IMG/VR virus record: IMGVR_UViG_2778261178_000002
Source: a virus
Lineage: Duplodnaviria > Heunggongvirae > Uroviricota > Caudoviricetes
Direction: 5' to 3' (one strand)
DNA length: 36,637 bases
The translations under genes were made by a program, and so were the position numbers. The notes beneath the pieces are model-generated. The model was not told the DNA's origin. It worked only from the letters and a program-made list of their open reading frames with translations, and ran no database searches. Shown here piece by piece: positions 1,440 through 32,483 of the stretch (position 1 is its first letter; the number at the start of each line of letters is the position of its first letter).

Positions 1440-1446
1440 CCGTTTC

Positions 1447-1533
1447 GCTGAAAAACATAACCCATAAAATGCTAGCTGTACCAGGAACCACCTCCTTAGC
1501 CTGTGTAATCTCCCTTACACGGGCTTATTTTTT
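1447..1533 (+). ncRNA. cyaR: CyaR (RyeE) Hfq-dependent small RNA
   Basis: 87-nt stretch GCTGAAAAACATAACCCATAAAATGCTAGCTGTACCAGGAACCACCTCCTTAGCCTGTGTAATCTCCCTTACACGGGCTTATTTTTT recognised from memory as CyaR; ends in stem-loop plus T6 terminator; located between yegQ and the ogr end of the prophage. Confidence 0.8.
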
Positions 1534-7047: not shown

Positions 7048-8238
7048 TTAATTGCTGTTAACCGAAGTGACCAGATTTGCCAGGTATTTATCGGTAATAC
7101 GCTGGCGCAGGGTCAGGTTTTCGAGAGGAGGCACCGGTGTATAGTCGTAGTCGATATACAGTTTTCCGGCCTTGAGGGTTTCCGCATCGTTGGATTCTTC
7201 GCTGAACCAGCAGGTCGCATCCACGATATAGCCGTTTGTTTTCAGCTCTCGGAATTTGGCATTGATGCCGTCAACGATGTCGCGAATCAGCGTTGCGGTG
7301 ATGGGCTTGTCCACCGCCCACATGTGCGCCTCAGCCATCGTGTCGGCCAGTACCTGCGCGGTGCGGGTGTAGTTTTCAAAGAGGAACAGCGGGTCATCAG
7401 AGCAGGTACGGTTACCCCAGAAGCGGAAACCGTCACGGCGAATCAGTGTTGTGACGCCTGACTCGTTAAGCAGGTCAGCATCGGTGCCGGACTCCTGCAA
7501 ATCCCAGAATACAGATGCGCTGATGCCGGTAACACCGTTCACCCCGACATTGGACAGCGTTTTATGCCAGCCCTGCTCCTGGTCGATTTTAGCGCGCAGA
7601 CCCAGCGCACGGGCGGTGGCATACGCGGTGGTGGTGGTACTGGTGACCGTATCCCATGCGAGGAAATCCGGCCAGATGACCATCAGCTCACGCTGGCTGA
7701 AATTCTGGCGGTAGGCTTTCACCTCGGAAATGGTTTTACAGCCCCATGCGCTGATATACCCGAAAGCGCGCAGCTTCTGACAGACTGATGCCAGTGCAAC
7801 AGCCACCTCTTTGGTATCCTGTCCCGGCACGCCGAGAATACGCGGTTTAACACCGGTTACCGACTCCGCCGCCAGCAGGGCTTTCAGTCCGGTGTACTGA
7901 CCGTTTTCGTCGGTGGTGCCGATGATATTGGAAACGGTCTGCGCAAGTTTCGTTTCTTCGTCGTCGCCGGTGCCGTCTTCCACGCGCACAACAACGGTGA
8001 CCGGTTTTGACTGGTCAGCGATGGCCTGTAACGACGCCGCCAGCGTGCCTTTTTTACCGGCCTTTGCAATTGCGCTCTGCACATTGGTAATCAGCACCGG
8101 TTTATTGAGGGGGAAGGTTTCCGCATCCGCATCGCTGGCCGTGCAGACCATGCCGACAATGGCAGTGGATACGGTGGAAATGACGCGGGTGCCGTCGTTA
8201 ATCTCCAGCACCTGCACGCCGTGATGATAGTCACTCAT
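7048..8238 (-). CDS. FI: Contractile tail sheath protein gpFI
   Basis: 396 aa, position and length as in P2. Confidence 0.85.
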   Translation of the reverse strand: MSDYHHGVQVLEINDGTRVISTVSTAIVGMVCTASDADAETFPLNKPVLITNVQSAIAKAGKKGTLAASLQAIADQSKPVTVVVRVEDGTGDDEETKLAQTVSNIIGTTDENGQYTGLKALLAAESVTGVKPRILGVPGQDTKEVAVALASVCQKLRAFGYISAWGCKTISEVKAYRQNFSQRELMVIWPDFLAWDTVTSTTTTAYATARALGLRAKIDQEQGWHKTLSNVGVNGVTGISASVFWDLQESGTDADLLNESGVTTLIRRDGFRFWGNRTCSDDPLFLFENYTRTAQVLADTMAEAHMWAVDKPITATLIRDIVDGINAKFRELKTNGYIVDATCWFSEESNDAETLKAGKLYIDYDYTPVPPLENLTLRQRITDKYLANLVTSVNSN

Positions 8239-8333
8239 CCGTTTAACTCCGTGGTTAATGGGTGCAACTATTTTCTGTTGTGCAGAGCATGAGACGCTAT
8301 TTGACCTGGCTGGTCAGTGGATGAAACAACAGA

Positions 8334-8360
8334 TAAAGAAAAGGCGGGCAATTCGCCCGC
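8334..8360 (-). terminator. Rho-independent terminator downstream of cargo operon 1, upstream of the FI late promoter region
   Basis: GGCGGGC / GCCCGCC stem with AATTC loop, followed on the minus strand by a T-rich tract (TTTTCTTT). Confidence 0.55.
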
Positions 8361-8722
8361 CTGTCCTGATTTGTACTCACTCATTTTCCGCCTGACAATT
8401 TACATAGCCCAAAAGTTATCAAATCTGACAGTCTGCTTTGAGCGAAAAGCGGAAGTTCACCATTGACTCCAAGGGACGTATTTAAAGATCTTTTCAATAT
8501 TTTTGAATATATATCGAGCGTGTTTTTAATTTGAATAACCTTAATGAAAGTATAACAAAAAAATTAAAAGTAGTAACGTCAGTAAAACATTTCAAATATG
8601 ATTTAAAAGTGTTTATGAGTGCCGAAAATGGAGATCTATCCACAATGGATATGCATTGCATATCCATAATTCTTGAGTACAAACACCATCATGAGGTGGA
8701 CTCTTGCAGGCACAAAATCAAT

Positions 8723-9838
8723 TCAAATAAAATTAAATAACTCATGTTCATCTATAGCTTTTGATCCAATTAAATTCGCAGCTTCTATGTCATTATCATT
8801 TGTTTCCGAAATAAGGAAAAATGAATCAATATTATTTTGTAAAATGATTTTTTTATGCTTCTTAAGCCATTGTAATTTACTTGTAGTGAACAACACTCGG
8901 CGCGGTAGAAGAATACGACTAAAAACTGAGGGGAGATACTCACTTCTATTAAATTGAACAAAAGGATCACCAAAAGAAAGGATAGTTAGATGATTAAATT
9001 TACCGTGCAAATTCAATTTTTCAGCTGATTTAGCTATGCCACTTGGCAAAAAAACACCTGTCTTGATACCTTTACGTAAAGCAGTAACAGCCATCATTTT
9101 ATCGAAAGCAGTTCCACCAAAGAGCAATGAATACCCTTTCTTAACAGAAATATCAATAGTATCAAGGACAGCTTGCTTTTCTATATCGCTAGGTGATGTA
9201 CTCGAAATTATAGAAAGATCAAAGTCAGTAAATAGCTGCCCAGTATAATAAAGATTTTTGCTTGATAAAGTTGAAAGTTTTACCGGAAAGCTTTTATCAT
9301 CACGTCGAATTTCGGACACATTTAGATCCTTTAGCGATGGGTAGCTATGGTTTGGTGTGACTTTTTCTCGTTTATTATTTTTTGATGCTTGCGGGCTAAA
9401 AACCAAAATCTCATTTTTATTGTTAGATAGAGAATCTTGTATCATTTTTTTTACAATTTCCCAATCAAGACCGCCGTGGCCACAACCTAAAGCTGGTAGA
9501 GTGATAATTTTACCGTTCTTATGCTCCAAATAATTCGAGAGCCAAACCAGACCTTTTTCTATATATTCATACTTGGATTTATTTTTCCAATGATCCTTAG
9601 TAGGAAAATTTATGATCTCTATATCATTACCATACGCATCAGCATTTTTCCAAACTGCTGGTTTACCTGGGGATATGTCTCCTTTTTTACATAGCAATAC
9701 GTACTCATCATACATTTCGGGAAACTTGTTTTTAAAAGCAAAAGCTACCCCTGCCCCCATTACACCAACACAATTAACTGTATTGATTCTAATGTCAGCA
9801 GCATAATCAAAAAAATCACCATCAACGAATCTAATCAT
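8723..9838 (-). CDS. Macrodomain (ADP-ribose-binding/hydrolase, DarG-like N-terminus) fused to a C-terminal DprA/SMF-like domain; putative antitoxin/sensor partner
   Basis: N-terminus carries macrodomain motifs (NTVNCVGVMGAGVAFAF; ITLPALGCGHGG); C-terminus has a DprA-like glycine-rich stretch (LLFGGTAFDKMMAVTALRKG...FLPSGIAK); ATGA overlap with the upstream gene; AT-rich. Confidence 0.55.
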   Translation of the reverse strand: MIRFVDGDFFDYAADIRINTVNCVGVMGAGVAFAFKNKFPEMYDEYVLLCKKGDISPGKPAVWKNADAYGNDIEIINFPTKDHWKNKSKYEYIEKGLVWLSNYLEHKNGKIITLPALGCGHGGLDWEIVKKMIQDSLSNNKNEILVFSPQASKNNKREKVTPNHSYPSLKDLNVSEIRRDDKSFPVKLSTLSSKNLYYTGQLFTDFDLSIISSTSPSDIEKQAVLDTIDISVKKGYSLLFGGTAFDKMMAVTALRKGIKTGVFLPSGIAKSAEKLNLHGKFNHLTILSFGDPFVQFNRSEYLPSVFSRILLPRRVLFTTSKLQWLKKHKKIILQNNIDSFFLISETNDNDIEAANLIGSKAIDEHELFNFI

Positions 9839-11169
9839 AAATTCTCCTCAAGATAAGTATACATCCTTGCTCTTAATTCTTCAATTTTATCAATCCCATC
9901 TTTTACCCATGCTGTATTAATGGAATTCATATCGCATTTAGCAATTAGAATTAACATATCTACATCAGATTTTATCTTTATTATTTTTTGCATTTGCTCT
10001 TCGTTTCTTTCATGGGCTATTATATCCCCAACAAGATCATCGTAAACTACGAGTGTCACAATTTGCCTTATTTCCCTATTGGATAAATCACCTATTTCTT
10101 CACACAAAATTCTTTTAAGCATAGGTAACGATTTAATAGGATGAGTATCATCTACTTTTTGTACTCCATCTTTCCATCTAGATTTAGGTCCTTTGCCAAT
10201 ATCATGTAAATATGCAGCGAGCGTTACAACAAGTCGTTCTCTTTCCGATAAGTCGTGGAATGCAGACTCCGTATTAAGTAAGCTGGCAACTCTTCTGCTA
10301 TGTGCCCCAACATCCTCTCGGTGAATAGGATTATCTGTTTCAAGGCCATCAATATCAGAAAGTTCTTTTATACACCCAAAGTTATTGCTAATCGCTTCTA
10401 ACACATCTGCGATATTTTTAAATCTAGGGTTTAAAGGTTTATTTTGTTTTATATCACTTATATATTTTTTAGTCTTCGCAAGGAGAATCTTAGGTCCTGT
10501 AACAATATTCACCCGGCCTACCACATTTAAATCATGAAAGTAATGATGATCAAATGATCTAGAATCACAACGAACATCAAAATTATTAAACCCATATTTT
10601 TTCAATAGCTGTGCAACATGCGTTTTCACGCAAAGATTCCAAACAACAATAAATGAAAAATTATTGAAGGGAATTTCATCATGAATAAGCAACTCTGCCA
10701 TTTTTTGCTGTTTTACTCCTTCGGTCTTTGGGATCCACACTCTACTGTCAATTGCATCCCAATTTAGCTTATTTAAATCATCAGCATTAGAGTAAAATGT
10801 TGGTGGCGTTAAAGTATTTGCAGAAGAATTTGAAAAAACTACTGATTTATCTTCTATCGCCTCTATTGGTATCGCAAGATATATAATTCCTTCTTGATCT
10901 ACGTTTTTTTTCTTAATAACATTAAGTAACATGGGAGATCTTTTAGTGAAGTAAAAAGGCACATAATCATGGACCACTCCACCTGGACCACAAGTGACCC
11001 TCATTTCACTACGACGGTGTTGTATTTCATTATTTGCTATATCTTTATGAATAATGCCTCTATTTGATTTTAAATTTGTACTAAGTAATCCATTTTTTAT
11101 AATTCCCTCAAGATTATCAATGTATGTAAAATGATAAACAAACCTATCTGAGTATTGTGGTTTTATCAT
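9835..11169 (-). CDS. DarT-like ADP-ribosyltransferase domain (DUF4433-type) fused to a C-terminal HD phosphohydrolase domain; putative toxin/effector
   Basis: N-terminus YHFTYIDNL (His13), HRRSE, HDYVPFYF, and a candidate catalytic Glu in MAELLIHD (about residue 159), resembling DarT; C-terminus has HD-domain motifs (H in GAHSRRV, HD in YLHDIGKG, D in VYDDLVGD); strong SD AAGGAG before the ATG. Confidence 0.55.
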   Translation of the reverse strand: MIKPQYSDRFVYHFTYIDNLEGIIKNGLLSTNLKSNRGIIHKDIANNEIQHRRSEMRVTCGPGGVVHDYVPFYFTKRSPMLLNVIKKKNVDQEGIIYLAIPIEAIEDKSVVFSNSSANTLTPPTFYSNADDLNKLNWDAIDSRVWIPKTEGVKQQKMAELLIHDEIPFNNFSFIVVWNLCVKTHVAQLLKKYGFNNFDVRCDSRSFDHHYFHDLNVVGRVNIVTGPKILLAKTKKYISDIKQNKPLNPRFKNIADVLEAISNNFGCIKELSDIDGLETDNPIHREDVGAHSRRVASLLNTESAFHDLSERERLVVTLAAYLHDIGKGPKSRWKDGVQKVDDTHPIKSLPMLKRILCEEIGDLSNREIRQIVTLVVYDDLVGDIIAHERNEEQMQKIIKIKSDVDMLILIAKCDMNSINTAWVKDGIDKIEELRARMYTYLEENL

Positions 11170-11581
11170 TTACTCTCTCCTTAAAATTTAAAGTTTTATC
11201 TGTATAGATTTAGTCTCAACTGAATTAATAGTCTTTATTAATCATAATATTTAAATAATTAGGCTGCTTTTTTAATTGAACTATAAAGAATAAGCAACCC
11301 ACTCAATAAGATACACTTTATTTATTCTGGTGCAATATTAAAAACGCATAATAAGTGTCATTTTCATTGCTCGTGAATGCCATTACTCTTAAATCGTGAT
11401 CCGGTTCAAAATTTAGAGGCTGGAGCTGGTTGTGTTTAATGAAAAATTACAATTTTAATACGTCCGCTGTACACCCTTAGCTGCCGTTAGCTTAACGTCC
11501 GCAACAGGCACAGAGCGGACTGTCAGATTAGGCTTTACTCTGTACCATAGATATGTAAGCTCACACCAGAGTTCATACAAC

Positions 11582-12109
11582 TTATTGCGGCATTTCCGGC
11601 CATTCAGGATTTGCAGGATCCACACGACTGACCAGAACGCTGTAGCGTTCCCAAGCCTCCAGCCGTGTGCGCTCCTCCTCTGTTGCCATGTTCAGTCTGA
11701 CCGCGCGCTCCAGCGGCAAAATCACGGATTCAGCATCTGCAAGAAGTCTGGCTTTCCGGTTTTCTGCCTGCTGCTGCAATTCCTCTGCCGTATAAATGCG
11801 TTTAATCACTTTTCCGTCCTTAAACATCCAGCCCCCTGAAATGTCCGCCCGTCGGTTAGCAGTAATATCCGCCACTTCAACAACACTTAATCCATCCGGT
11901 CTGATAGCTGTCACATCCTTTTCCACATAGCGGATGATATTATCCTTGTCGTACGCTATTTTTATCGTGTCATCAGCAAAATACTTTTGTTCTTCGTACC
12001 AGTTCTTACCATCTTCTGAAAAAAACCAGACAACATCAAAATCCCTTGTCAATTGATATTGTTCAACCGTTTTTGGATTACCTGCCGTTATATTTATCAA
12101 ATGCTGCAT
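11582..12109 (-). CDS. G: Tail fibre assembly chaperone gpG
   Basis: 175 aa, immediately downstream of H. Confidence 0.8.
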
Positions 12110-12112
12110 AAA

Positions 12113-14431
12113 TTATACCTGCGCCACGTTATACCAAGTCCCGTTAATGTATTTCTGCACCGGTCTGTAATATACGCCACCAATGTTATCGGCAGAGTTT
12201 GAGCCGGTATCCTGAACAATAATGCCGGAATATACACACCCGGACGGTGCCTGATGTGTCCATGTCATGCCATTGTTCGCAGGTTTGTATGTGGCAGCAC
12301 CACCAAGCCGAATATCCCGGACATAGCGTGAATCAAAGTTGCCATAGTTAGATGGTGATACCTGCCCGTTAACAGCAAAAGTGATGCTGTTATCTGTATT
12401 TCTCTGACTGTAAAAATGCCAGCCTGCATCATCACCTAATTCAGCCACCACCGGACGACTTGAGTTTCCCCACAAATTGAATGCGGCTTCCTTCGTGGAT
12501 GTATTACTGCTGCTGACCGTGAATTTTTTCCCGCTACCGGCACGTACTTTGGTACTTGAGACAATATCACCAGTAACACTCAGGCCATGCCCCATTGATA
12601 CAGCACCCGTGGCATCATTTATAATCAGTGGTCTTAAATTATTATAAGTGCCTAATCTGTCACCTGATTTAGTCAACATAAAATAAGTGCTGCTGCCATC
12701 ATTCCTGATAAAGAATCCATAATTGCCATAAGCAATGCGCAGACCATTAGCACTGCTTGATGTAATCTCACCTCTTGAACGGAGACCATAAGCGGAGCTG
12801 AGTGATAATTCTTCCTGAGCATCAGTATTACCAGTCGCCCAGCGAACTACCCCGCCCTGTACTGTTTCATGCCAGATAGTGTCTCCTTCTCCACCACGAA
12901 ACTTTCTGAGATATTTTTTGCCGCCTCTGGTGCCTGAACATAAGGCCGTAGACATATAGGCATTCTGGCTTCCGCCATCCTGATTAATCGTTCCGGTCAT
13001 TGAGTCGCCCTGACGATTCCAGTCACGACGCCAGCCGGGGGAGTAGCCGTCCCCATGATTAATGTAAGTGAATTGCGCGCTGGTTGTACCGCCACCACTT
13101 GATGTTGTCGGCGTGGTCACTCGGATAGTGATTGCAGATTTAGTTCCCATGACCTCGACGACACAACCAGCCAGGTGGATATCACCACATCCGGTATCCG
13201 TAATGATTTTGTTATTTGCATATGACCAGGAGCCTTTGCACATCCAGTACGGATGATTAAATGCACCACGGGAATCCAGCCATTCAATAAACTGAGCGGT
13301 TGTCCAGTTTCCGGCTTCAGTGCTCAAAGCGCCGCTATAAGCACGACAGGCACCGATATTTTTCGTGAAGGTATCCTTTCCCGGAATATCCGCACCGTTC
13401 TGATCTTTCTGAAGACGTTTTTCAGCATTGTCATAGGCAGACTTCACTGCTTTTGGCGTTGCCGCGAGGGTTTCAGAATCACTGTTGGTGGCGCTACTGA
13501 GCTGGACAAGACCTTTTCGCGCCGTGGTGGCATCCTGTGCAGTGTATTTCCCGTTAGCAAGGTCATACGCTGTCTTAACCGCCTTTGGTGTTGCCGCAAG
13601 CGTTTCAGAATCGCTGTTGGTGGCGCTACTGAGCTGGACAAGACCTTTTCGCGCTGTAGTGGCGTCCTGTGCAGTGTATTTCCCGTTAGCAAGGTCATAC
13701 GCGGCCTTTACCGCTTTCGGCGTTGCGGCGAGCGTTTCAGACGTGCTGTTAGTCGCACTACTGAGCTGAACAAGGCCTTTTCGCGCGGTGGTGGCATCCT
13801 GCGCGGTATATTTCCCGTTAGCAAGGTCATAGGCGGTCTTTACCGCTTTCGGCGTTGCAGCCAGTGTTTCAGACGTGCTGTTGGTCGCACTGCTTAACTG
13901 AGTAAAACCTTTTGCGGTCAGCGAGGCGTCAGGGTGACGTCGTGACTGTTCATGTTCTGCAATTTTGTCATCAACGTAATCCTGCGTCGCCATCACCGTT
14001 GTGGTGTCAATGGTCAGCGCCACCGAGGCCACACTGCTGACGATGATGACCATGCGACAGGTCTGCGAACGCCCTGAGCCTTCGGCAAGAGCTGGCTTAT
14101 AACTTTCGGCCATGTTCGCCACGGCAATTAACGTTCCCGCATCATCGTACAGGCCAAGCTCACGCATCCAGAAACCGCCCACCTCCGGCGGAATAACCAG
14201 CTCTGCGATAATATAATTACTGTTTCGTTTGTCCTGGCTGATTTTGTTCAGCGTATGTCGCCAGACTTCGTGGATAAGCCCGGTCTGTCCGGCATCCGGG
14301 ACAGGCAATTTACCACCGCCATCCCCGACGGCCATCGTGGTAATGTTGACCTTCCGCCCTCCCGGTGCGGTTGCCGCTGCCAGCTTTGCTGCACCGGCAG
14401 TGGTGATAACGGTTCTGAATTTTGTGCTCAT
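12113..14431 (-). CDS. H: Tail fibre protein gpH, with internal tandem repeats
   Basis: 772 aa; position between I and G; contains about four tandem 44-aa repeats. Confidence 0.85.
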   Translation of the reverse strand: MSTKFRTVITTAGAAKLAAATAPGGRKVNITTMAVGDGGGKLPVPDAGQTGLIHEVWRHTLNKISQDKRNSNYIIAELVIPPEVGGFWMRELGLYDDAGTLIAVANMAESYKPALAEGSGRSQTCRMVIIVSSVASVALTIDTTTVMATQDYVDDKIAEHEQSRRHPDASLTAKGFTQLSSATNSTSETLAATPKAVKTAYDLANGKYTAQDATTARKGLVQLSSATNSTSETLAATPKAVKAAYDLANGKYTAQDATTARKGLVQLSSATNSDSETLAATPKAVKTAYDLANGKYTAQDATTARKGLVQLSSATNSDSETLAATPKAVKSAYDNAEKRLQKDQNGADIPGKDTFTKNIGACRAYSGALSTEAGNWTTAQFIEWLDSRGAFNHPYWMCKGSWSYANNKIITDTGCGDIHLAGCVVEVMGTKSAITIRVTTPTTSSGGGTTSAQFTYINHGDGYSPGWRRDWNRQGDSMTGTINQDGGSQNAYMSTALCSGTRGGKKYLRKFRGGEGDTIWHETVQGGVVRWATGNTDAQEELSLSSAYGLRSRGEITSSSANGLRIAYGNYGFFIRNDGSSTYFMLTKSGDRLGTYNNLRPLIINDATGAVSMGHGLSVTGDIVSSTKVRAGSGKKFTVSSSNTSTKEAAFNLWGNSSRPVVAELGDDAGWHFYSQRNTDNSITFAVNGQVSPSNYGNFDSRYVRDIRLGGAATYKPANNGMTWTHQAPSGCVYSGIIVQDTGSNSADNIGGVYYRPVQKYINGTWYNVAQV
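13424..13909. repeat. Tandem 132-bp coding repeats (about 3.7 copies) inside tail fibre gene H
   Basis: Repeated peptide GLVQLSSATNS[TD]SETLAATPKAVK[TAS]AYDLANGKYTAQDATTARK; the same periodicity shows in overlapping shadow ORFs on both strands. Confidence 0.8.
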
Positions 14432-26273: not shown

Positions 26274-26292
26274 GTGCTTTCCCCGCCTCGCC
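26274..26292. other. cos site (19-nt cohesive-end sequence, reverse complement of GGCGAGGCGGGGAAAGCAC)
   Basis: GTGCTTTCCCCGCCTCGCC matches the P2 cohesive-end sequence as I recall it; located just beyond Q as expected. Confidence 0.6.
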
Positions 26293-26421
26293 CGCCCGCT
26301 TCATGGGTCGATTTTAATGCAGTTGCATTTTTATCGAAAGTCTCGTCTCACAAAACCCTCCCTTCACTAAATAGACTCATTATCCACATGCAATCTAATT
26401 CAAAAAAATGCATGTATAGTA

Positions 26422-28392
26422 TTAAAGGTCATCAATTAAACCTAAAGGCAAACCGTCCTCACCAACCGAGCTATAATGAGCGATAATATTCGAAAGTTCA
26501 CCAGTAGAAAACGAATTAGGCAAATCATTATCAACTAATATAATCTGGCACGGAACATTTTTTCTTTCTGCTTTTTGAACTGTATTCAATAGTTGTTCAT
26601 AAATATTTTGATACTTCATCGGATCTGACATTCCCTCAAGGTCATCCTCGACTGCAAGAGTTTCTTTTGAATATTTTTCCTTGGTCTGTTTCCCTAAATA
26701 TTTGCCAACCGTATCAAATATCAAAAGTAAAGGATGGTTAACATTATGATCTATTGCATAATCAAGAATAGACAAAAGATACCCAATAGAAGAAATAGTT
26801 CTCAAACCTCCGGATGTTATTTTAAAATATTCTTTTTCTCTTATAACAGGAATGTAATAGCTTTCAGAGATTTTTATCCCCGTTCTGTTTTTGATATTAA
26901 TACCCTTCAAATACTGACTAAATCTATCACCCAAACCTTGTAAAATGCCCTCCATGCTAGGTGCGTTTTTCTTTAACGCCTCCAAGCGTTCAGTTAATGC
27001 TTCAATATCTTTTCTCAGTACCTGATACTTTTCAAGCAGTTCCTCTTGCTGGTTTCTAACCTTCAAATCTTTTACTAACTGCTCCCTAACCTTCTCATTT
27101 TTTGATATCTCTTTAATATAAAAATCTCTCTGAGTCAAGAATGGTGTAATCATTGACTGGCTTTCTTCGTCAATCAATTCTCTCAACTCGTCAAGTCGTT
27201 CATCTAATTCTTTTTTATAACCTGATTCTTTTTTTAATTTAAATGACATTTCTGAGATCATGTCATTAATATTTCGTCTACGTCGACTAAGTGAATTCAA
27301 CTCTTCATTAAGATCTTTTTCTGATGAAATTTCAAATGGAAAATCAGAATCATCTATTTTAATGTGGCTATCACAGATTGGACAGGAAAATATTTCCTTA
27401 TCCAATACACCAATGCGAGAATTTGCTGTTTTAATCGCTTTAAGTTTTTCAATATCATTATCATAGTCATTTTTTAACCGCGAATATTTATCAATCTTAT
27501 CCTCAAGCGCACTAATATTTAATATGCACTCTTTGTATTTAAGCGAAATAAAATTGTGAGCATCTTTAAATTCTGTATACTGTATGGAATCCGCTTTCAT
27601 ATTTTTATCGAGAGCAGACAAACCTGCAACAAGTTCTTCTAAAACAAGATCTATCCTATTAATCTCATCATCAATTGATTCAATTGTTTCATAGTCTGTA
27701 TCGCGAAGAAATTCAGATATTATCTGATACTTCCTATTTAATTCCGTTACTAAACTACTTTTTGCAGATATTTCACCTTGGAGTCTGGCGATGCTTTCAT
27801 CCAACACATTGAACATGTATTTAAAAACTTCTTTCGTAAATGCGTAGCGGGACCAATCACCCAATCGCAAGAAAGATTTACTACCAATATCATCCTGACT
27901 TACATAAACAAATTTATATATATTTCTAAAACTTAACCTGCGCATCTGTGAATGCGCTTTAGAAGGAGACACCTTAATTTCAATCTTTGGAAAATTAAGA
28001 CTATCAAGTAAAAACTCCGAAAAAACACCATCAACATTTGATAATGGGCTATAATTAGGAGCGTATTTTTTCGGAAAATGTTTATGTAAATCATCAAACT
28101 TACAACGATAAACTTCTATTGCTTTTTTATGATCATAGATATCTCTTACGATTGTGAATACAGTATCATTGATCACTACTTCAAGAGCAGCATAGTTTAC
28201 TGATGTTTTTATTTCATCTGCTAAATCTATAGAGCTAGCACCTAAAAGATAATTAATAAACTCCAGAATGCTTGACTTACCTGTGTCAGAGTCTCCGTAG
28301 ATAACATTGAGACCTTTATAAAAAGTAGTGACGTAGTTTTTACGAACACCAACAAGAATCAAACTATTGATATTGAGATATGATTTCATCAT
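26422..28392 (-). CDS. SMC/Rad50-like ABC ATPase with long coiled coil (Lamassu LmuB-like / ABC-3C ATPase)
   Basis: N-terminal Walker A GDSDTGKSS; central coiled-coil-like region with a CxxC (FSCPICDSH) hook-like motif; C-terminal ABC signature TSGGLRT and Walker B LLLIFDT; SD AAGGAGAA; ATGA overlap with the upstream gene; AT-rich. Confidence 0.6.
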   Translation of the reverse strand: MMKSYLNINSLILVGVRKNYVTTFYKGLNVIYGDSDTGKSSILEFINYLLGASSIDLADEIKTSVNYAALEVVINDTVFTIVRDIYDHKKAIEVYRCKFDDLHKHFPKKYAPNYSPLSNVDGVFSEFLLDSLNFPKIEIKVSPSKAHSQMRRLSFRNIYKFVYVSQDDIGSKSFLRLGDWSRYAFTKEVFKYMFNVLDESIARLQGEISAKSSLVTELNRKYQIISEFLRDTDYETIESIDDEINRIDLVLEELVAGLSALDKNMKADSIQYTEFKDAHNFISLKYKECILNISALEDKIDKYSRLKNDYDNDIEKLKAIKTANSRIGVLDKEIFSCPICDSHIKIDDSDFPFEISSEKDLNEELNSLSRRRRNINDMISEMSFKLKKESGYKKELDERLDELRELIDEESQSMITPFLTQRDFYIKEISKNEKVREQLVKDLKVRNQQEELLEKYQVLRKDIEALTERLEALKKNAPSMEGILQGLGDRFSQYLKGINIKNRTGIKISESYYIPVIREKEYFKITSGGLRTISSIGYLLSILDYAIDHNVNHPLLLIFDTVGKYLGKQTKEKYSKETLAVEDDLEGMSDPMKYQNIYEQLLNTVQKAERKNVPCQIILVDNDLPNSFSTGELSNIIAHYSSVGEDGLPLGLIDDL

Positions 28393-28901
28393 TTCTCCTT
28401 GAAAACTTGATTTATAACAGAGTTTAACTTAGAGGTAGGCAATGCTTGTAGCGGTAACAATGCTTCGGATAGTCGTTTTATTTCTTTAAAATATCCATCA
28501 GTCAATGAGCTAGCAAATTCCTTACCTTTTTCAGATAAAAATAATTTAACACTCTCATTATTTTTTTTCTCAGCTGAGAGCAATCCCCGCAATGACATAA
28601 TTTTTATAAGATATTTCACTTTGGAATTGTCGAATAAGATATCTACATTTGATGAAAAACTCTTTATTGTATAAGTTAACTGGGACTCGACACAAGCAGG
28701 CTTTTTCCCCGAAATTGTAAGAGCATAATCAATTTTTGATGGGTTTTTTATCAGATACATAAAAATTTGTATTTTATTAATATCTAATGATAACACTCCT
28801 TTTTTGCTATGAGATAATATAGATATAGCAATGGCAAGCATAGCAAAATTCAAGCTATACTCTTCATCAAGAGGAATATACGGCAAGTTATTTTTCTTCA
28901 T
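28389..28901 (-). CDS. Small middle-component protein (LmuC-like), function unknown
   Basis: 170-aa ORF translationally coupled on both sides (14-nt overlap upstream, ATGA overlap downstream); SD GAGGT; no recognisable catalytic motif. Confidence 0.4.
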   Translation of the reverse strand: MKKNNLPYIPLDEEYSLNFAMLAIAISILSHSKKGVLSLDINKIQIFMYLIKNPSKIDYALTISGKKPACVESQLTYTIKSFSSNVDILFDNSKVKYLIKIMSLRGLLSAEKKNNESVKLFLSEKGKEFASSLTDGYFKEIKRLSEALLPLQALPTSKLNSVINQVFKEK

Positions 28902-30111
28902 GATTACCTCGCCGTAATTGCTCCAAAGTTTCTACGCTGGTTTCAGATGACCAGACAATATCTCTATCATTTTTGTTAGCCAGTTGATGCAACATTCCTT
29001 TCTTATGTATCGTTTCTAAACTTTTTATAAGAGAATCTAACGACGACTTATCCTCTTGGGCTATTCGTCTATGAACAGCAGCAATAAATTTATCTGGGGA
29101 AATTGAATTCGCGATATATTGCTCATACTCTTCCTGGTAAATCTCCCTTATTTTAGAATACAAATGACCAAGTAGTTTCCTATCGTAATCACTCGTAAAA
29201 ATATTTCTCGCAAGCTCAGCATTATAATAATATTCCTTTGCATGCATAGCGATATCCTGATGTATATCTGCGACAATCATTTTTAAGACGAAATACTCAT
29301 TATCATATTGTTTCTCATCAGAAAAACGCTCAACACATATCTTCTTGGGTGCTTCTAAATTTATCTGCTGAATAAATTGCTTTACCGCAACAAACACTGT
29401 AGACGAGCTGTTTTCGGGCTTGCAAATTGAGCTATGCCCTTCATTAACTGCAATTGAGTTATTTCGTTCACTATCCATCGGTAATGCGCTTTTTTTATCA
29501 ACTATAGTGTCATGAGAACCATAAACATATCTAGTGATAGGAAGTTTTTTGCTACAATTTATCCAGCGCCTATTCAATGTATCAGTCGCTTCACTTAACA
29601 ATCCAAGATCTACTAACTGAGCATTTGAAGATACCATTGAAGTTATATTCGCCAATTTAGCACCAAAGTGAGGGACTGCTAACGAAATGAATCCAATTAT
29701 ATTAGATTGTTCCTCATGCTCAACTTTTTTTAGAATTAGATTTTTTGATATTAACCCCCCCATACTATGGGCAATTATTATAATTCGAGAGTAATCACTT
29801 AGCGTTACCCTAATCTCAGTATACAATAACTCAGCTATTTCATCAGTTGGTAAATTTCTCTCTAACTTATTTTTCTTAGAGAAAATACGAGCCAATAATC
29901 CTGACGTTTTAGCATACGTTTGTGTAAATTTTGTGAAATAGTTGAAACATGCAATATCAAATACATTGCCAATGTCTTCATCTTCTGCTAATAGTTTTGG
30001 AAATGAAGTTTCTTTATTAAAGTTCCATGTTTCCAAACCACCATTTAATCCATGTACAAATAGTATCAGGCTATCTTTTTTCTCGTGGCTTATCCATTCA
30101 ACCATGCTCAT
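28888..30111 (-). CDS. Alpha/beta-hydrolase (lipase/esterase-like Ser-Asp-His) effector with C-terminal helical domain (LmuA-like)
   Basis: N-terminal LILFVHGLNGG, nucleophile elbow AHSMGG, candidate Asp (GSHDTIVD) and His (NEGHSS); C-terminal about 170 aa with no catalytic motif; first gene of a three-gene operon. Confidence 0.55.
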   Translation of the reverse strand: MSMVEWISHEKKDSLILFVHGLNGGLETWNFNKETSFPKLLAEDEDIGNVFDIACFNYFTKFTQTYAKTSGLLARIFSKKNKLERNLPTDEIAELLYTEIRVTLSDYSRIIIIAHSMGGLISKNLILKKVEHEEQSNIIGFISLAVPHFGAKLANITSMVSSNAQLVDLGLLSEATDTLNRRWINCSKKLPITRYVYGSHDTIVDKKSALPMDSERNNSIAVNEGHSSICKPENSSSTVFVAVKQFIQQINLEAPKKICVERFSDEKQYDNEYFVLKMIVADIHQDIAMHAKEYYYNAELARNIFTSDYDRKLLGHLYSKIREIYQEEYEQYIANSISPDKFIAAVHRRIAQEDKSSLDSLIKSLETIHKKGMLHQLANKNDRDIVWSSETSVETLEQLRRGNHEEK

Positions 30112-30200
30112 ATGCTTTTCTGCCGTGTATAAAAATTAAACCATAACAAACAATTCCTCAACAATAACATATTGTTACCCCGTTTGACCGTTCTTTTCAA

Positions 30201-32483
30201 CTACCACTCACGCTGTCTGTCAAAAAAGTCGATATCGTTATCAAATTTAAAACGCTTATGCCCAAAATCCAAAACAGCTCCGCGAGCGAGAGCTTCAAGC
30301 TCCCAATAACTAGCCTGAATGTCACTTTGTGCAAGAAGAACCTTAATTTTCGGGATAGTCTTTCTCTCCTGTCTTGTCAACCGGGCGGATGGGGCAGGAA
30401 AGTAGCTTCGACCATTGAAAGGGGTAAAGCTCTGCTGTGAACGATTACTGCATTTCAGTTCATTACTCAATAAGTCTCTAAGTACCTTCATAATGCCTGG
30501 CTCGGTCCAACTTAGAATCCCTTCATCTATTAAATTTAACACCGCTGCAGCATGCTCAGTCGGTGTGGGTGCCGGTAACGAAGTATCACCACCGTTGAGC
30601 TTTCCACAGTTATTGACAGGACTCCGAGGCGCGGCGATGCCGCTTTTTAAAGTCAAAGGCTCAACGACCGGAACTTTCGGCACAATGCGCCAGTCCGTCG
30701 TTCTGGTGATATGAATATGACGCGCGCCGAGATGCGGCGCGTAAATGCCGACCACTCTCTCGACCTCTTCCTCGTACTCGTTAACGTCATCCGACGGGCT
30801 ACGGGCGACCCTGACAGTCTGACAATCGCGCGGGACATTTGCCCCACCCTGCGCGCTGATATACAGCGCAAAATCGCCACTGTCTGCGGCGGCGCGTGCA
30901 GCCTCCACGCGTTCGTCAAATTCATCAGCAATGCTGACGCCGCGAGGCAATTTACGTAGCTCACGGTAAGCTCCCATTGTCGGCAGGCCAACCGTTTTAA
31001 ATTGCGGGATGCGCCACGTTGACGCCCATGCGGTAACAGCCGCGGCAGTATCTTTCAGCGGTCTGCCGGTATCGTTATCGAGCTGACCATCCAGTGCATA
31101 GCCGTCGATATTTTTTGAAATGTATTTCGCGATATATCCCGCAGCACCGCCCCGGTTAAGGTGTTTTGCCTGAAAACGGTTTCGCGCGGCTCCTCTTTCG
31201 TCGCCATCCTCTTTGAGCGCATAGCGACGCATGATTTCGATAATCTGGTTACGCTGGCGTGGATTACAAAAAAGCATCATATGCCAGTGCGGCGTTCCGT
31301 CGTGGTGTGGCTCGACGACTCGCAAACCGTAGACCTGTAAATCATTATCCTTGAATGCCGTGCGCATCAGGCTCCAGATACGGCAGAGATAACGCTGCGC
31401 ATCCTTTGGATTAAATGCCTCATCATTCCAGCCGTGATTAAGCTGGACGGTTTTATTTTCGCCTTTTCCAACCTGACGTGTCGGGTGATACTTTGACGGC
31501 GCGGTAAGCGTGATAAACATCCCCACATCACCCTCTGAGGCGGCGTAACGCTCAATACCGGCAATGGTGTTCATCAGCTCCATCCGGCGAATTTCAGGAT
31601 TAGAAATACTGCCCATCACCTTACTGATAAGGTCGATGCGTTCGCCGGTTTCCCTGTTTTCAAGGTCACACGATTTAAGAAACTCCAGATTTGCCTGGCG
31701 GCGCGCACGCACATCACGAATGGCATGTTTACTGGCATAAGGAGAACGGTCTTTATTGACCTCCCCGACAGCAATCAGTAACGCCTCATGCCAGCGCATA
31801 CGCTGGCCTTTAAGCTGATGAGTCCACCACTCATCGTTAAACAGGCGGGCAATGGCAGAATATGCCTGCCTCGTGGTCATCTGCCCTTTACGGTATTTTC
31901 TCCAGTAAAGCGGAGAAATATTGAAAGCACGTGCAGCGCCAGCAACATGACCATACAGGTGAGCCTGCGCCTCATCCGTAAACAGCGATTCTTTTTCGCC
32001 ATGCGCATCCACCCAGGCATCGCAGAGTTCCTCATACATCATGAAAAGCTGCGATGAGATTCGGGCGGCAAACTTTTTCAGCTCCTTGTCATTCATCCCC
32101 GGCAGGCGCGCATACTGGTCGCGCTCTGCCAGAAACAGCAACGACGCGTCGGTGTTCATTTCATGGCGCTGATTCACACGCTCAATGCGCGGCCATAAAC
32201 GACGCTGAAAAGTGGATGTGAGGAAATAAAACCCGTGCACCGGGCTTTTATTGCGCCGGATGTAGTCATAGCGTGAAGTAAACAGCGAGCGCAAAAAGTA
32301 AGGCAGGCGGTTAATCGTGGATAAAACACCTTGCACCTGACGCATCTCGTCACGTGTAAGGGGTCTTTCGCGCCCGACAGCCTCGCGTGGCGCGTTCCAT
32401 GCATAAGCACCGGTAAACGCCTTACCGGTGCCTGCGGCAAATGCTGACGGAGGGACAAAACGCCCGGAGGCTTTAACGGCCAT
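30201..32483 (-). CDS. A: Replication initiation protein gpA (rolling-circle nicking endonuclease)
   Basis: About 760 aa from ATG at 32481..32483 (MAVKASGRF...); the ORF track's 774-aa version uses an upstream TTG; position as in P2. Confidence 0.8.
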   Translation of the reverse strand: MAVKASGRFVPPSAFAAGTGKAFTGAYAWNAPREAVGRERPLTRDEMRQVQGVLSTINRLPYFLRSLFTSRYDYIRRNKSPVHGFYFLTSTFQRRLWPRIERVNQRHEMNTDASLLFLAERDQYARLPGMNDKELKKFAARISSQLFMMYEELCDAWVDAHGEKESLFTDEAQAHLYGHVAGAARAFNISPLYWRKYRKGQMTTRQAYSAIARLFNDEWWTHQLKGQRMRWHEALLIAVGEVNKDRSPYASKHAIRDVRARRQANLEFLKSCDLENRETGERIDLISKVMGSISNPEIRRMELMNTIAGIERYAASEGDVGMFITLTAPSKYHPTRQVGKGENKTVQLNHGWNDEAFNPKDAQRYLCRIWSLMRTAFKDNDLQVYGLRVVEPHHDGTPHWHMMLFCNPRQRNQIIEIMRRYALKEDGDERGAARNRFQAKHLNRGGAAGYIAKYISKNIDGYALDGQLDNDTGRPLKDTAAAVTAWASTWRIPQFKTVGLPTMGAYRELRKLPRGVSIADEFDERVEAARAAADSGDFALYISAQGGANVPRDCQTVRVARSPSDDVNEYEEEVERVVGIYAPHLGARHIHITRTTDWRIVPKVPVVEPLTLKSGIAAPRSPVNNCGKLNGGDTSLPAPTPTEHAAAVLNLIDEGILSWTEPGIMKVLRDLLSNELKCSNRSQQSFTPFNGRSYFPAPSARLTRQERKTIPKIKVLLAQSDIQASYWELEALARGAVLDFGHKRFKFDNDIDFFDRQREW

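Follow-up and report, generated by a model that had tools for sequence, protein, structure and literature searches.

What process puts different genes, in one phage after another, between the same two late genes of P2-like prophages? The question is raised by IMG/VR virus record IMGVR_UViG_2778261178_000002, a stretch of 36,637 nucleotides (the window) that holds a P2-like prophage adjoining yegQ and the gene for the CyaR small RNA, with its late genes on the minus strand. Two islands of cargo interrupt the prophage backbone, and the first of these, island 1, occupies the entire intergenic region between the tail-fibre assembly gene G (Caudo_TAP, 2.3e-34), which ends at 11582, and the sheath gene FI, which starts at 8238. 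Comparison of its sequence and of predicted protein structures makes it likely that island 1 encodes a non-canonical toxin-antitoxin anti-phage module of the DarTG2 kind, and that the slot in which the module lies is a worn transposon devoid of a transposase.

The two islands had been picked out in a first-pass annotation of the window as strikingly AT-rich, and both sliding-window G+C content and G+C content at third codon positions bear this out. Overall G+C content is 0.327 in island 1 and 0.328 in island 2 against 0.536 in the backbone; in 500-nt windows it is 0.29-0.36 at 8501-11500 and 0.31-0.40 at 26501-30500, compared with 0.50-0.61 in the backbone, and the five cargo genes have third-position values of 0.23-0.29 as against 0.46-0.72 for backbone genes. 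The same annotation had seen the islands as cassettes in fixed slots of a conserved backbone, and their positions are those of the two published P2 hotspots, G-FI (Z/fun) and A-cos-Q (old/tin), with defence systems in both (a putative one in island 1). The old/tin hotspot was described in Rousset 2022, a second defence-enriched locus at the fun position was noted in Vassallo 2022, and a 2026 survey in NAR (gkag898) recognises two main P2 hotspots and calls the recombination process behind the swaps unresolved. That P2 hotspots carry swappable defence cargo is thus already established, and in this respect the earlier reading of the window adds little. Our islands resemble the published Z/fun and old/tin loci in their positions, in their variable AT-rich defence cargo and in their conserved flanks; among the published accounts that we examined, none includes terminal repeats flanked by target-site duplications (TSDs), empty sites, or the spread of the repeats beyond P2.

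Swapping at conserved breakpoints, which had been proposed for the islands, is directly shown at the Z/fun slot. Our query was matched by 1,012 of 5,426 complete E. coli genomes, only three of which contain the whole of island 1 (100% identity), and the remaining matches cover about 9% of the query, corresponding to the flanks of island 1 only. Between these flanks the E. coli genomes carry other cargo, including HNH, SIR2, RES, and HTH plus acetyltransferase genes, among others. The flanks are 93-98% identical to those of P2 and of six other cassette types, and the breakpoints are fixed, with homology to P2 and to five other cassette types ending every time at 8448-8459 and at 11486-11507.

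An inverted repeat brackets the cargo, pairing 8422-8457 with 11494-11529 and extended by 8474-8486 and 11453-11465. The window contains exactly two copies of its 19-nt core against an expectation of 0.05, and the same repeat bounds all of the P2 cassettes examined. Left and right inverted repeats are already marked at the Z region in the GenBank entries of Nilsson 2004, and one of them (AJ512683) labels the stretch equivalent to 8372-8460 'right inverted repeat'. With the outer ends included, the repeats form a left arm at 8372-8460 (plus strand; outer end TGTACTCACTC, inner block AATCTGACAGTCTGCTTTGAGCGAAAAGCGGAAGTT) and a right arm at 11491-11579 (minus strand; outer end TGTATGAACTC, 2 nt from the G stop codon), the edge of the left arm being 9 nt from the terminator of the late operon. 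The arms do not correspond to a known RNA family as far as Rfam is concerned, a scan of the window at gathering thresholds returning only CyaR and permissive scans of the arms giving matches at chance level. We did not find the repeat sequences in the literature, although Nilsson 2004, LeRoux 2022 and Odegrip 2006 may hold a prior description.

Sequences related to these arms are present far from P2. The repeat motif is found on 45-58 plasmids of Klebsiella, Salmonella, Yersinia, Pantoea, Serratia and Providencia and in 25 species representatives, almost none of the latter in a G-FI context, and the repeat outer end is present in at least 120 metagenome contigs. The aligned arms are about 90 nt long, start with TGTATTAGCTCAGACTTGA, and hold two ATCTGACrGT repeats. 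Perfect 7-bp TSDs flank 14 of the 28 inverted pairs, the chance of a single perfect 7-bp match being about 6e-5, and most of the other pairs either match at 5-6 of 7 positions or are shifted in register by 1 nt. The duplications vary by site (GCTAATA, CACTATT, CTTAATA, AATAATT, GCTAACT and ACTAAAT), and in 13 intact examples position 3 is T in 12 and position 5 is A in all 13, giving the pattern NNTNANN. A transposase is absent from the interior of every one of the 28 pairs.

The window's arms fit this family in sequence and in what flanks them. They are identical to each other at 57 of 92 positions and to the arms of a TSD-flanked element elsewhere at 62-67 of 92, with the left arm (8372-8460) matching at 67 of 92. 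Immediately outside them lie CCTGATT on the left (8365-8371) and ACTTATT on the right (11580-11586), the latter containing the G stop codon; the two are alike at 5 of 7 bases and both fit NNTNANN, and within the window they are a probable decayed pair rather than a perfect duplication. The right copy was compared with the empty sites of related phages, of which there are four: in Yersinia phage P37, PSP3, FSLSP004 and F1055, a synthetic joint of the two flanks aligns in one piece. In P37 and PSP3, the two that were aligned, the stop codon of G runs directly into the terminator, and compared with them the filled site has about one TSD length extra. The same element also occurs at different sites, as a 6.7-kb element with a type II CBASS operon (CD-NTase, E1/ThiF, JAB, HNH-SAVED and exonuclease) lies at L074 4447-11154 with the duplication CTTTATC and at L090 6598-13308 with CATCACC. 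Empty sites in relatives and the presence of one element at several sites are among the marks of a non-autonomous transposon, and the sequences compared give evidence for membership of the Z/fun slot in a widespread family of transposase-less elements that carry defence genes. Other defence-type cargo in the family includes Mrr plus a STAND NTPase, HNH/Mrr, HNH, TIR/SEFIR, a HEPN-associated protein and DUF2971, and the cargo outside defence consists of a few metabolic or channel genes.

A different explanation is that the slot is a hotspot of homologous or site-specific recombination and nothing more, in which the repeats are native P2 recombination or insulator sequences with no transposon involved; the title of the 2004 paper by Nilsson et al. 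suggests such a reading. Two observations favour it over a transposon origin. The cassettes of the P2 slot all share the P2-specific outer arm sequence, with homology breaking at the inner repeat ends, and the copy of our cassette on an IncFII plasmid has the inner part (most) of both arms and breaks inside them. The inner block thus clearly serves for exchange in which no transposition is involved. Recombination alone nevertheless seems unlikely to account for the slot, as repeats of about 90 nt bound elements at unrelated chromosomal, plasmid and prophage sites with differing perfect 7-bp flanks (the 14 of 28 pairs above), the CBASS element is identical at its two sites, and the P37 and PSP3 empty sites are shorter by about the length of a TSD.

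In the transposon account, the slot (8372-11579) would have arisen in a P2 ancestor by an insertion that separated the stop codon of G from the terminator of the operon, and the outer ends may have decayed since this old event. Recombination would afterwards have exchanged one cargo for another through the inner, conserved stretch of the terminal repeats, a proposal that agrees with where homology breaks off among the P2 cassettes and with the broken arms of the plasmid copy.

Cargo exchange within an element that stays in place is also seen outside P2, in two metagenome loci (L068 250-3638 and L075 867-2266) in which elements lie at the same site beside a P4-type integrase with the same TSD, GATAAAG, the cargo being 3.4 kb with an HNH/Mrr gene in the former and 1.4 kb in the latter. 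Downstream of P2-type gpA, the position of the other P2 hotspot, a Kosakonia element (L036 2000-3419) carries DUF2971 and is followed by Gabija-like genes, and a metagenome element (L128 8612-10636) carries a TIR/SEFIR protein. Further elements are found a few kb or less from genes of the lambdoid antiterminator region.

Elements with terminal inverted repeats, target-site duplications and passenger genes in the absence of a transposase are familiar as mobile insertion cassettes (MICs), Tn3-derived inverted-repeat miniature elements (TIMEs) and cargo-carrying miniature inverted-repeat transposable elements (MITEs). The family described here differs from these in its repeats of about 90 nt with internal ATCTGACrGT, in the 7-bp NNTNANN duplication and in cargo that is mostly defence, and we identified no matching autonomous element or named family for the repeats. 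Tn3-type elements have 38-bp repeats starting with GGGG and generate a 5-bp duplication. A Tn3-derived origin of the TIME kind was considered and rejected, as the arms start with TGTATTAG and not GGGG, are about 90 nt long, and have a 7-bp duplication. The annotated protein clusters that recur near the arms are lambdoid prophage genes, P4-type integrases and IS110-family transposases, and no autonomous element was found among them.

One candidate for the cognate transposase was an IS30-family gene (HTH_38 plus rve, 386 aa), but it has its own repeat (TGTGAGTTCAAC...) and no partner arm was found in those loci; the presence of an IS110-family element at the same arm position in other plasmids also speaks against a role for the IS30 family as mobiliser. 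The neighbouring IS30- and IS110-family genes are separate insertion sequence (IS) elements inserted into the arm and not the mobilising enzyme. The arm is interrupted at a fixed position, after CTTTGAGC, at L024 2399-3585, L025 303-1535 and L046 6001-7704, the interrupting element being an IS30-family IS in several species, and in about 20 plasmids of Klebsiella, Enterobacter and Salmonella the arm is cut at this same position, with the IS110-like ISEsa2 next to it in L046, the one that was inspected. The arm thus appears to be a preferred IS target.

What, then, does the element carry at the Z/fun slot? The two genes of island 1 are on the minus strand and are translationally coupled, the stop codon of the first overlapping the start of the second (ATGA). 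The upstream gene (9835-11169) encodes a toxin-like protein of 444 aa with a DarT domain at residues 10-203 and an HDIG-type HD phosphohydrolase domain at about 226-444, and the downstream gene (8723-9838) encodes an antitoxin-like protein of 371 aa with a DarG-type macrodomain at 1-150 and a DprA/ShosA-like Rossmann domain at about 170-371. A non-coding tail follows on the 3' side (8461-8722, minus strand), and accompanies the genes in the Klebsiella IncFII plasmid copy and, in part, in a Citrobacter copy.

Assignment of the 444-aa protein to DarT is based on Pfam (5.8e-47), PADLOC (7.8e-53) and an NCBIfam equivalog above its cutoff, and the protein also matches the Thermus DarT (E 3.4e-25). 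Residues R52, R53 and E159 of this DUF4433 ADP-ribosyltransferase domain are invariant among 24 homologues with identities down to 43%, leaving the catalytic residues intact, as in DarTG2 toxins. The HD domain is matched by Pfam at 1.6e-6, and H290, H322, D323 and D378, invariant in the same 24 homologues, form the H...HD...D metal-binding motif within an all-helical HD fold that is the mark of HD phosphohydrolases. Both domains are part of one compact and confident predicted model (predicted TM-score, pTM, 0.88).

The macrodomain of the 371-aa partner matches the solved DarG macrodomains (PDB 5m3i and 5m31) at 5e-31, consistent with a DarG-type antitoxin, and its N22 and K81, invariant in 24 homologues, are the counterparts of N22 and K80, the catalytic residues of T. 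aquaticus DarG (PMC13309987). The likeness to DarG is confined to the N-terminal part. The PADLOC DarG profile is matched over positions 1-159 of 329 only, and the NCBIfam DarG model over 1-208 of 338 with a score of 228.6, below the cutoff of 250; the canonical C-terminal DarT-binding domain of DarG was not found in the protein, and a DprA/ShosA fold is predicted in its place. ShosA binds single-stranded DNA, and this binding is required for neutralising its toxin (PMC11961720).

These features suggest that the pair is a widespread variant of DarTG2 with a non-canonical architecture. It shares with the DarTG2 systems of Thermus, M. tuberculosis, enteropathogenic E. coli and P. aeruginosa (DarT2/DarG2) a DarT ADP-ribosyltransferase with conserved catalytic residues, an adjacent DarG-type macrodomain antitoxin, and a two-gene operon on mobile elements. 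It differs from them in that the toxin has double the usual length through the addition of a C-terminal HD phosphohydrolase, and in that a DprA/ShosA-like domain replaces the canonical DarT-binding domain of the antitoxin. The DprA/ShosA-like fold is shared with ShosTA (ShosA, PDB 8zva), but the pair does not belong to that system, as the toxin is DarT-HD and not a phosphoribosyltransferase, and the antitoxin has an enzymatic macrodomain as well. Other DarTG variants, with helicases and a new DarG3, were reported in a 2026 study; we found no description of a DarT-HD fusion in the literature, although Nilsson 2004, LeRoux 2022 and Odegrip 2006 may hold prior accounts.

By analogy with the characterised DarTG family, the DarT domain would use NAD+ to ADP-ribosylate thymidines in single-stranded DNA, and the toxin, once unleashed by infection, would block replication of both phage and host DNA and so bring about abortive infection, while the macrodomain of the partner would remove the modification and keep the lysogen alive. 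The HD domain may act as a phosphodiesterase or nuclease on nucleic-acid ends, on ADP-ribosylated DNA or on nucleotides. The DprA-like domain would bind single-stranded DNA and bring the hydrolase to the toxin's substrate, and could possibly aid RecA-dependent repair.

The HD domain might instead be the real effector, as a Cas3-like single-stranded DNA nuclease or a degrader of nucleotides, with the DarT domain reduced to a sensor or a tag. Weak PADLOC matches to Cas3 HD domains (E ~1e-3), the invariance of the HD motif, and the modelling of the two domains as one compact unit (pTM 0.88) all point in this direction and away from a DarT-centred toxin. We think this improbable, however, since the catalytic residues of DarT are no less invariant, the partner has a full ADP-ribose hydrolase site that makes sense only if ADP-ribosylation occurs, and the nearest match to the predicted HD fold is a tRNA-processing enzyme and not Cas3.

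Gene order and lengths are conserved for the pair in Pseudomonas, Vibrio cholerae, Klebsiella, Citrobacter, Cronobacter and Trabulsiella, with 819 homologues of the 444-aa protein and 2,198 of the 371-aa protein. The Klebsiella IncFII plasmid copy has 95% amino-acid identity and lies next to the IncFII replicon, the Citrobacter copy is in a lambdoid prophage with Kiwa as its neighbour, and another close copy is at a prophage tail end. A more distant pair in Trabulsiella (L041 1100-3775; 48-51% amino-acid identity) is preceded by the inner repeat block alone, and an outer arm could not be recognised. In E. coli MDR_56 (L002 4846-9715) the module is represented by a second lineage, located between icd and the e14 integrase, where the macrodomain gene has 83% DNA identity, a diverged repeat core is present at the edge, and darT-HD is split by IS50R. 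In E. coli LR-28 (L003 3001-6344) the same yegQ/ogrK site is occupied by a prophage remnant, heavily degraded, that still carries an identical cassette and in which the flanking tail and portal genes are pseudogenes.

This distribution bears on two further explanations. In the first, the module is mainly an addiction or stabilisation system for the prophage or plasmid and not a phage defence, a reading that gains from the location of the pair next to a plasmid replicon and in prophages, and from its persistence in the degraded LR-28 remnant, both of which weigh against a primary role in defence. We regard it as rather unlikely, because DarTG1 and DarTG2 systems are reported to protect against phages (PMC11543638, PMC13309987), nearly all the cargo of the slot and of the element family is of defence type, and Kiwa neighbours the module in Citrobacter. 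In the second, the cassette serves counter-defence, its macrodomain shielding P2 DNA from the DarT toxins of the host, and phages are indeed known to carry orphan DarG-like macrodomains for this purpose (PMC13309987; see also PMC11825919), which speaks against a defence module. Here, though, translation of the macrodomain gene is coupled to that of an intact DarT gene, the pair is conserved outside phages as well, and a macrodomain gene retained after the DarT gene was lost is not what most relatives show; we consider counter-defence very improbable indeed. A DarTG2-like anti-phage module thus remains the reading that we favour.

How the module might be expressed can be judged in part from its surroundings. 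An AT-rich leader upstream of the genes, as the first-pass annotation had described, is present at 11170-11490 (minus strand), and contains a Shine-Dalgarno (SD) sequence, GGAGAG, at 11180-11175 and two overlapping candidate promoters at 11377-11348 and 11361-11334. Sigma-70-like matches are not enriched relative to shuffled sequences in this AT-rich DNA (12 found, 13.9 expected), and the candidates were judged by conservation of the leader and not by scan score. Across the P2, IncFII plasmid and lambdoid (Citrobacter) prophage copies, the leader has a mean column identity of 87%, and the -10 elements of both candidates are invariant. Strong SD sequences had been claimed for both islands; the claim holds for island 1, where GGAGAG is 5 nt before the darT ATG and GAGGAG precedes darG, and not for lmuA of island 2, which has a weak one (cagaaaagcatATG). 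The TTGAAA hexamer reported as -35-like in the island 2 leader is found at 30200-30195. No terminator-like site was found between G and darT, and read-through from the late operon into the cargo is therefore also possible.

The terminator that had been attributed to island 1 itself is real as a hairpin with a T-run ahead of the FI promoter region (8332-8362, minus strand; stem 8362-8342 with 9 bp, seven of them G-C pairs, and T-run 8341-8332). It does not belong to the cargo. It sits within 8100-8453, a P2-like flank that is 98% identical to P2 and is common to every cassette type, and is therefore a feature of the slot and the P2 backbone; in P37 and PSP3, which have the empty site, this hairpin follows the stop codon of G with nothing in between. 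The module thus seems to have its own SD sequence and a conserved leader with candidate promoters, and probably uses the terminator of the slot.

Beyond the swapping already known, the window may contribute two things, the DarT-HD / Macro-DprA architecture and a transposon origin of the slot, both of which are proposed from sequence comparison and structural models. We also advance a broader view, to which we give slightly less than an even chance: that one family of transposase-less elements creates or fills the slots of several unrelated mobile elements, that its inner block is a portable recombination site, and that DarT-HD / Macro-DprA is a distinct DarTG subtype. If this is true, the slots occupied would include P2 Z/fun, the A-proximal hotspot of P2 in other genera, the lambdoid nin/Q region, P4-type integrase sites and conjugative plasmids, and the swapping of cargo without movement of the element would be a mechanism behind the turnover of 'defence hotspots'. 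The terminal repeats, target duplications and empty sites would then provide a concrete and testable model for P2/P4 hotspot swapping, for which the 2026 survey had no resolved process. The module itself could reveal how ADP-ribosylation of DNA is linked with a second activity on nucleic acids, and by what means an antitoxin is directed to single-stranded DNA.

In island 2, a Lamassu system of ordinary type occupies the classical old/tin hotspot that lies between gene A and the cos region. Its three genes, all on the minus strand, have near full-length PADLOC matches and make up a Lamassu operon: lmuA (28888-30111; LmuA, 5.9e-109; Pfam CTD8 and DUF676) encodes an alpha/beta-hydrolase effector with ABC-3C CTD8, lmuC (28389-28901; LmuC, 4.1e-52; Pfam MC4) the ABC-3C middle component, and lmuB (26422-28392; LmuB, 6.2e-235) an SMC-like ATPase. 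Nothing notable distinguishes it from known Lamassu (ABC-3C) systems, LmuA being of the hydrolase type. A flanking inverted repeat comparable to that of island 1 was not found at island 2, and the repeat motif is absent there. Between Q and island 2, at 26282-26300 on the minus strand, lies GGCGAGGCGGGGAAAGCAC, which seems to match the 19-nt P2 cohesive end; in that case island 2 would have its lower border next to cos.

The ORF translation of the tail-fibre gene H (12113-14431, minus strand) has four near-identical tandem repeats of about 45 aa (…TAKGFTQLSSATNSTSETLAATPKAVKTAYDLANGKYTAQDATTARKGLVQLSSATNS…). The CyaR small RNA gene is found at 1445-1530 (plus strand; Rfam, 100.7 bits), between yegQ and the ogr end of the prophage, confirming the integration at the cyaR locus that the first reading of the window had assumed.

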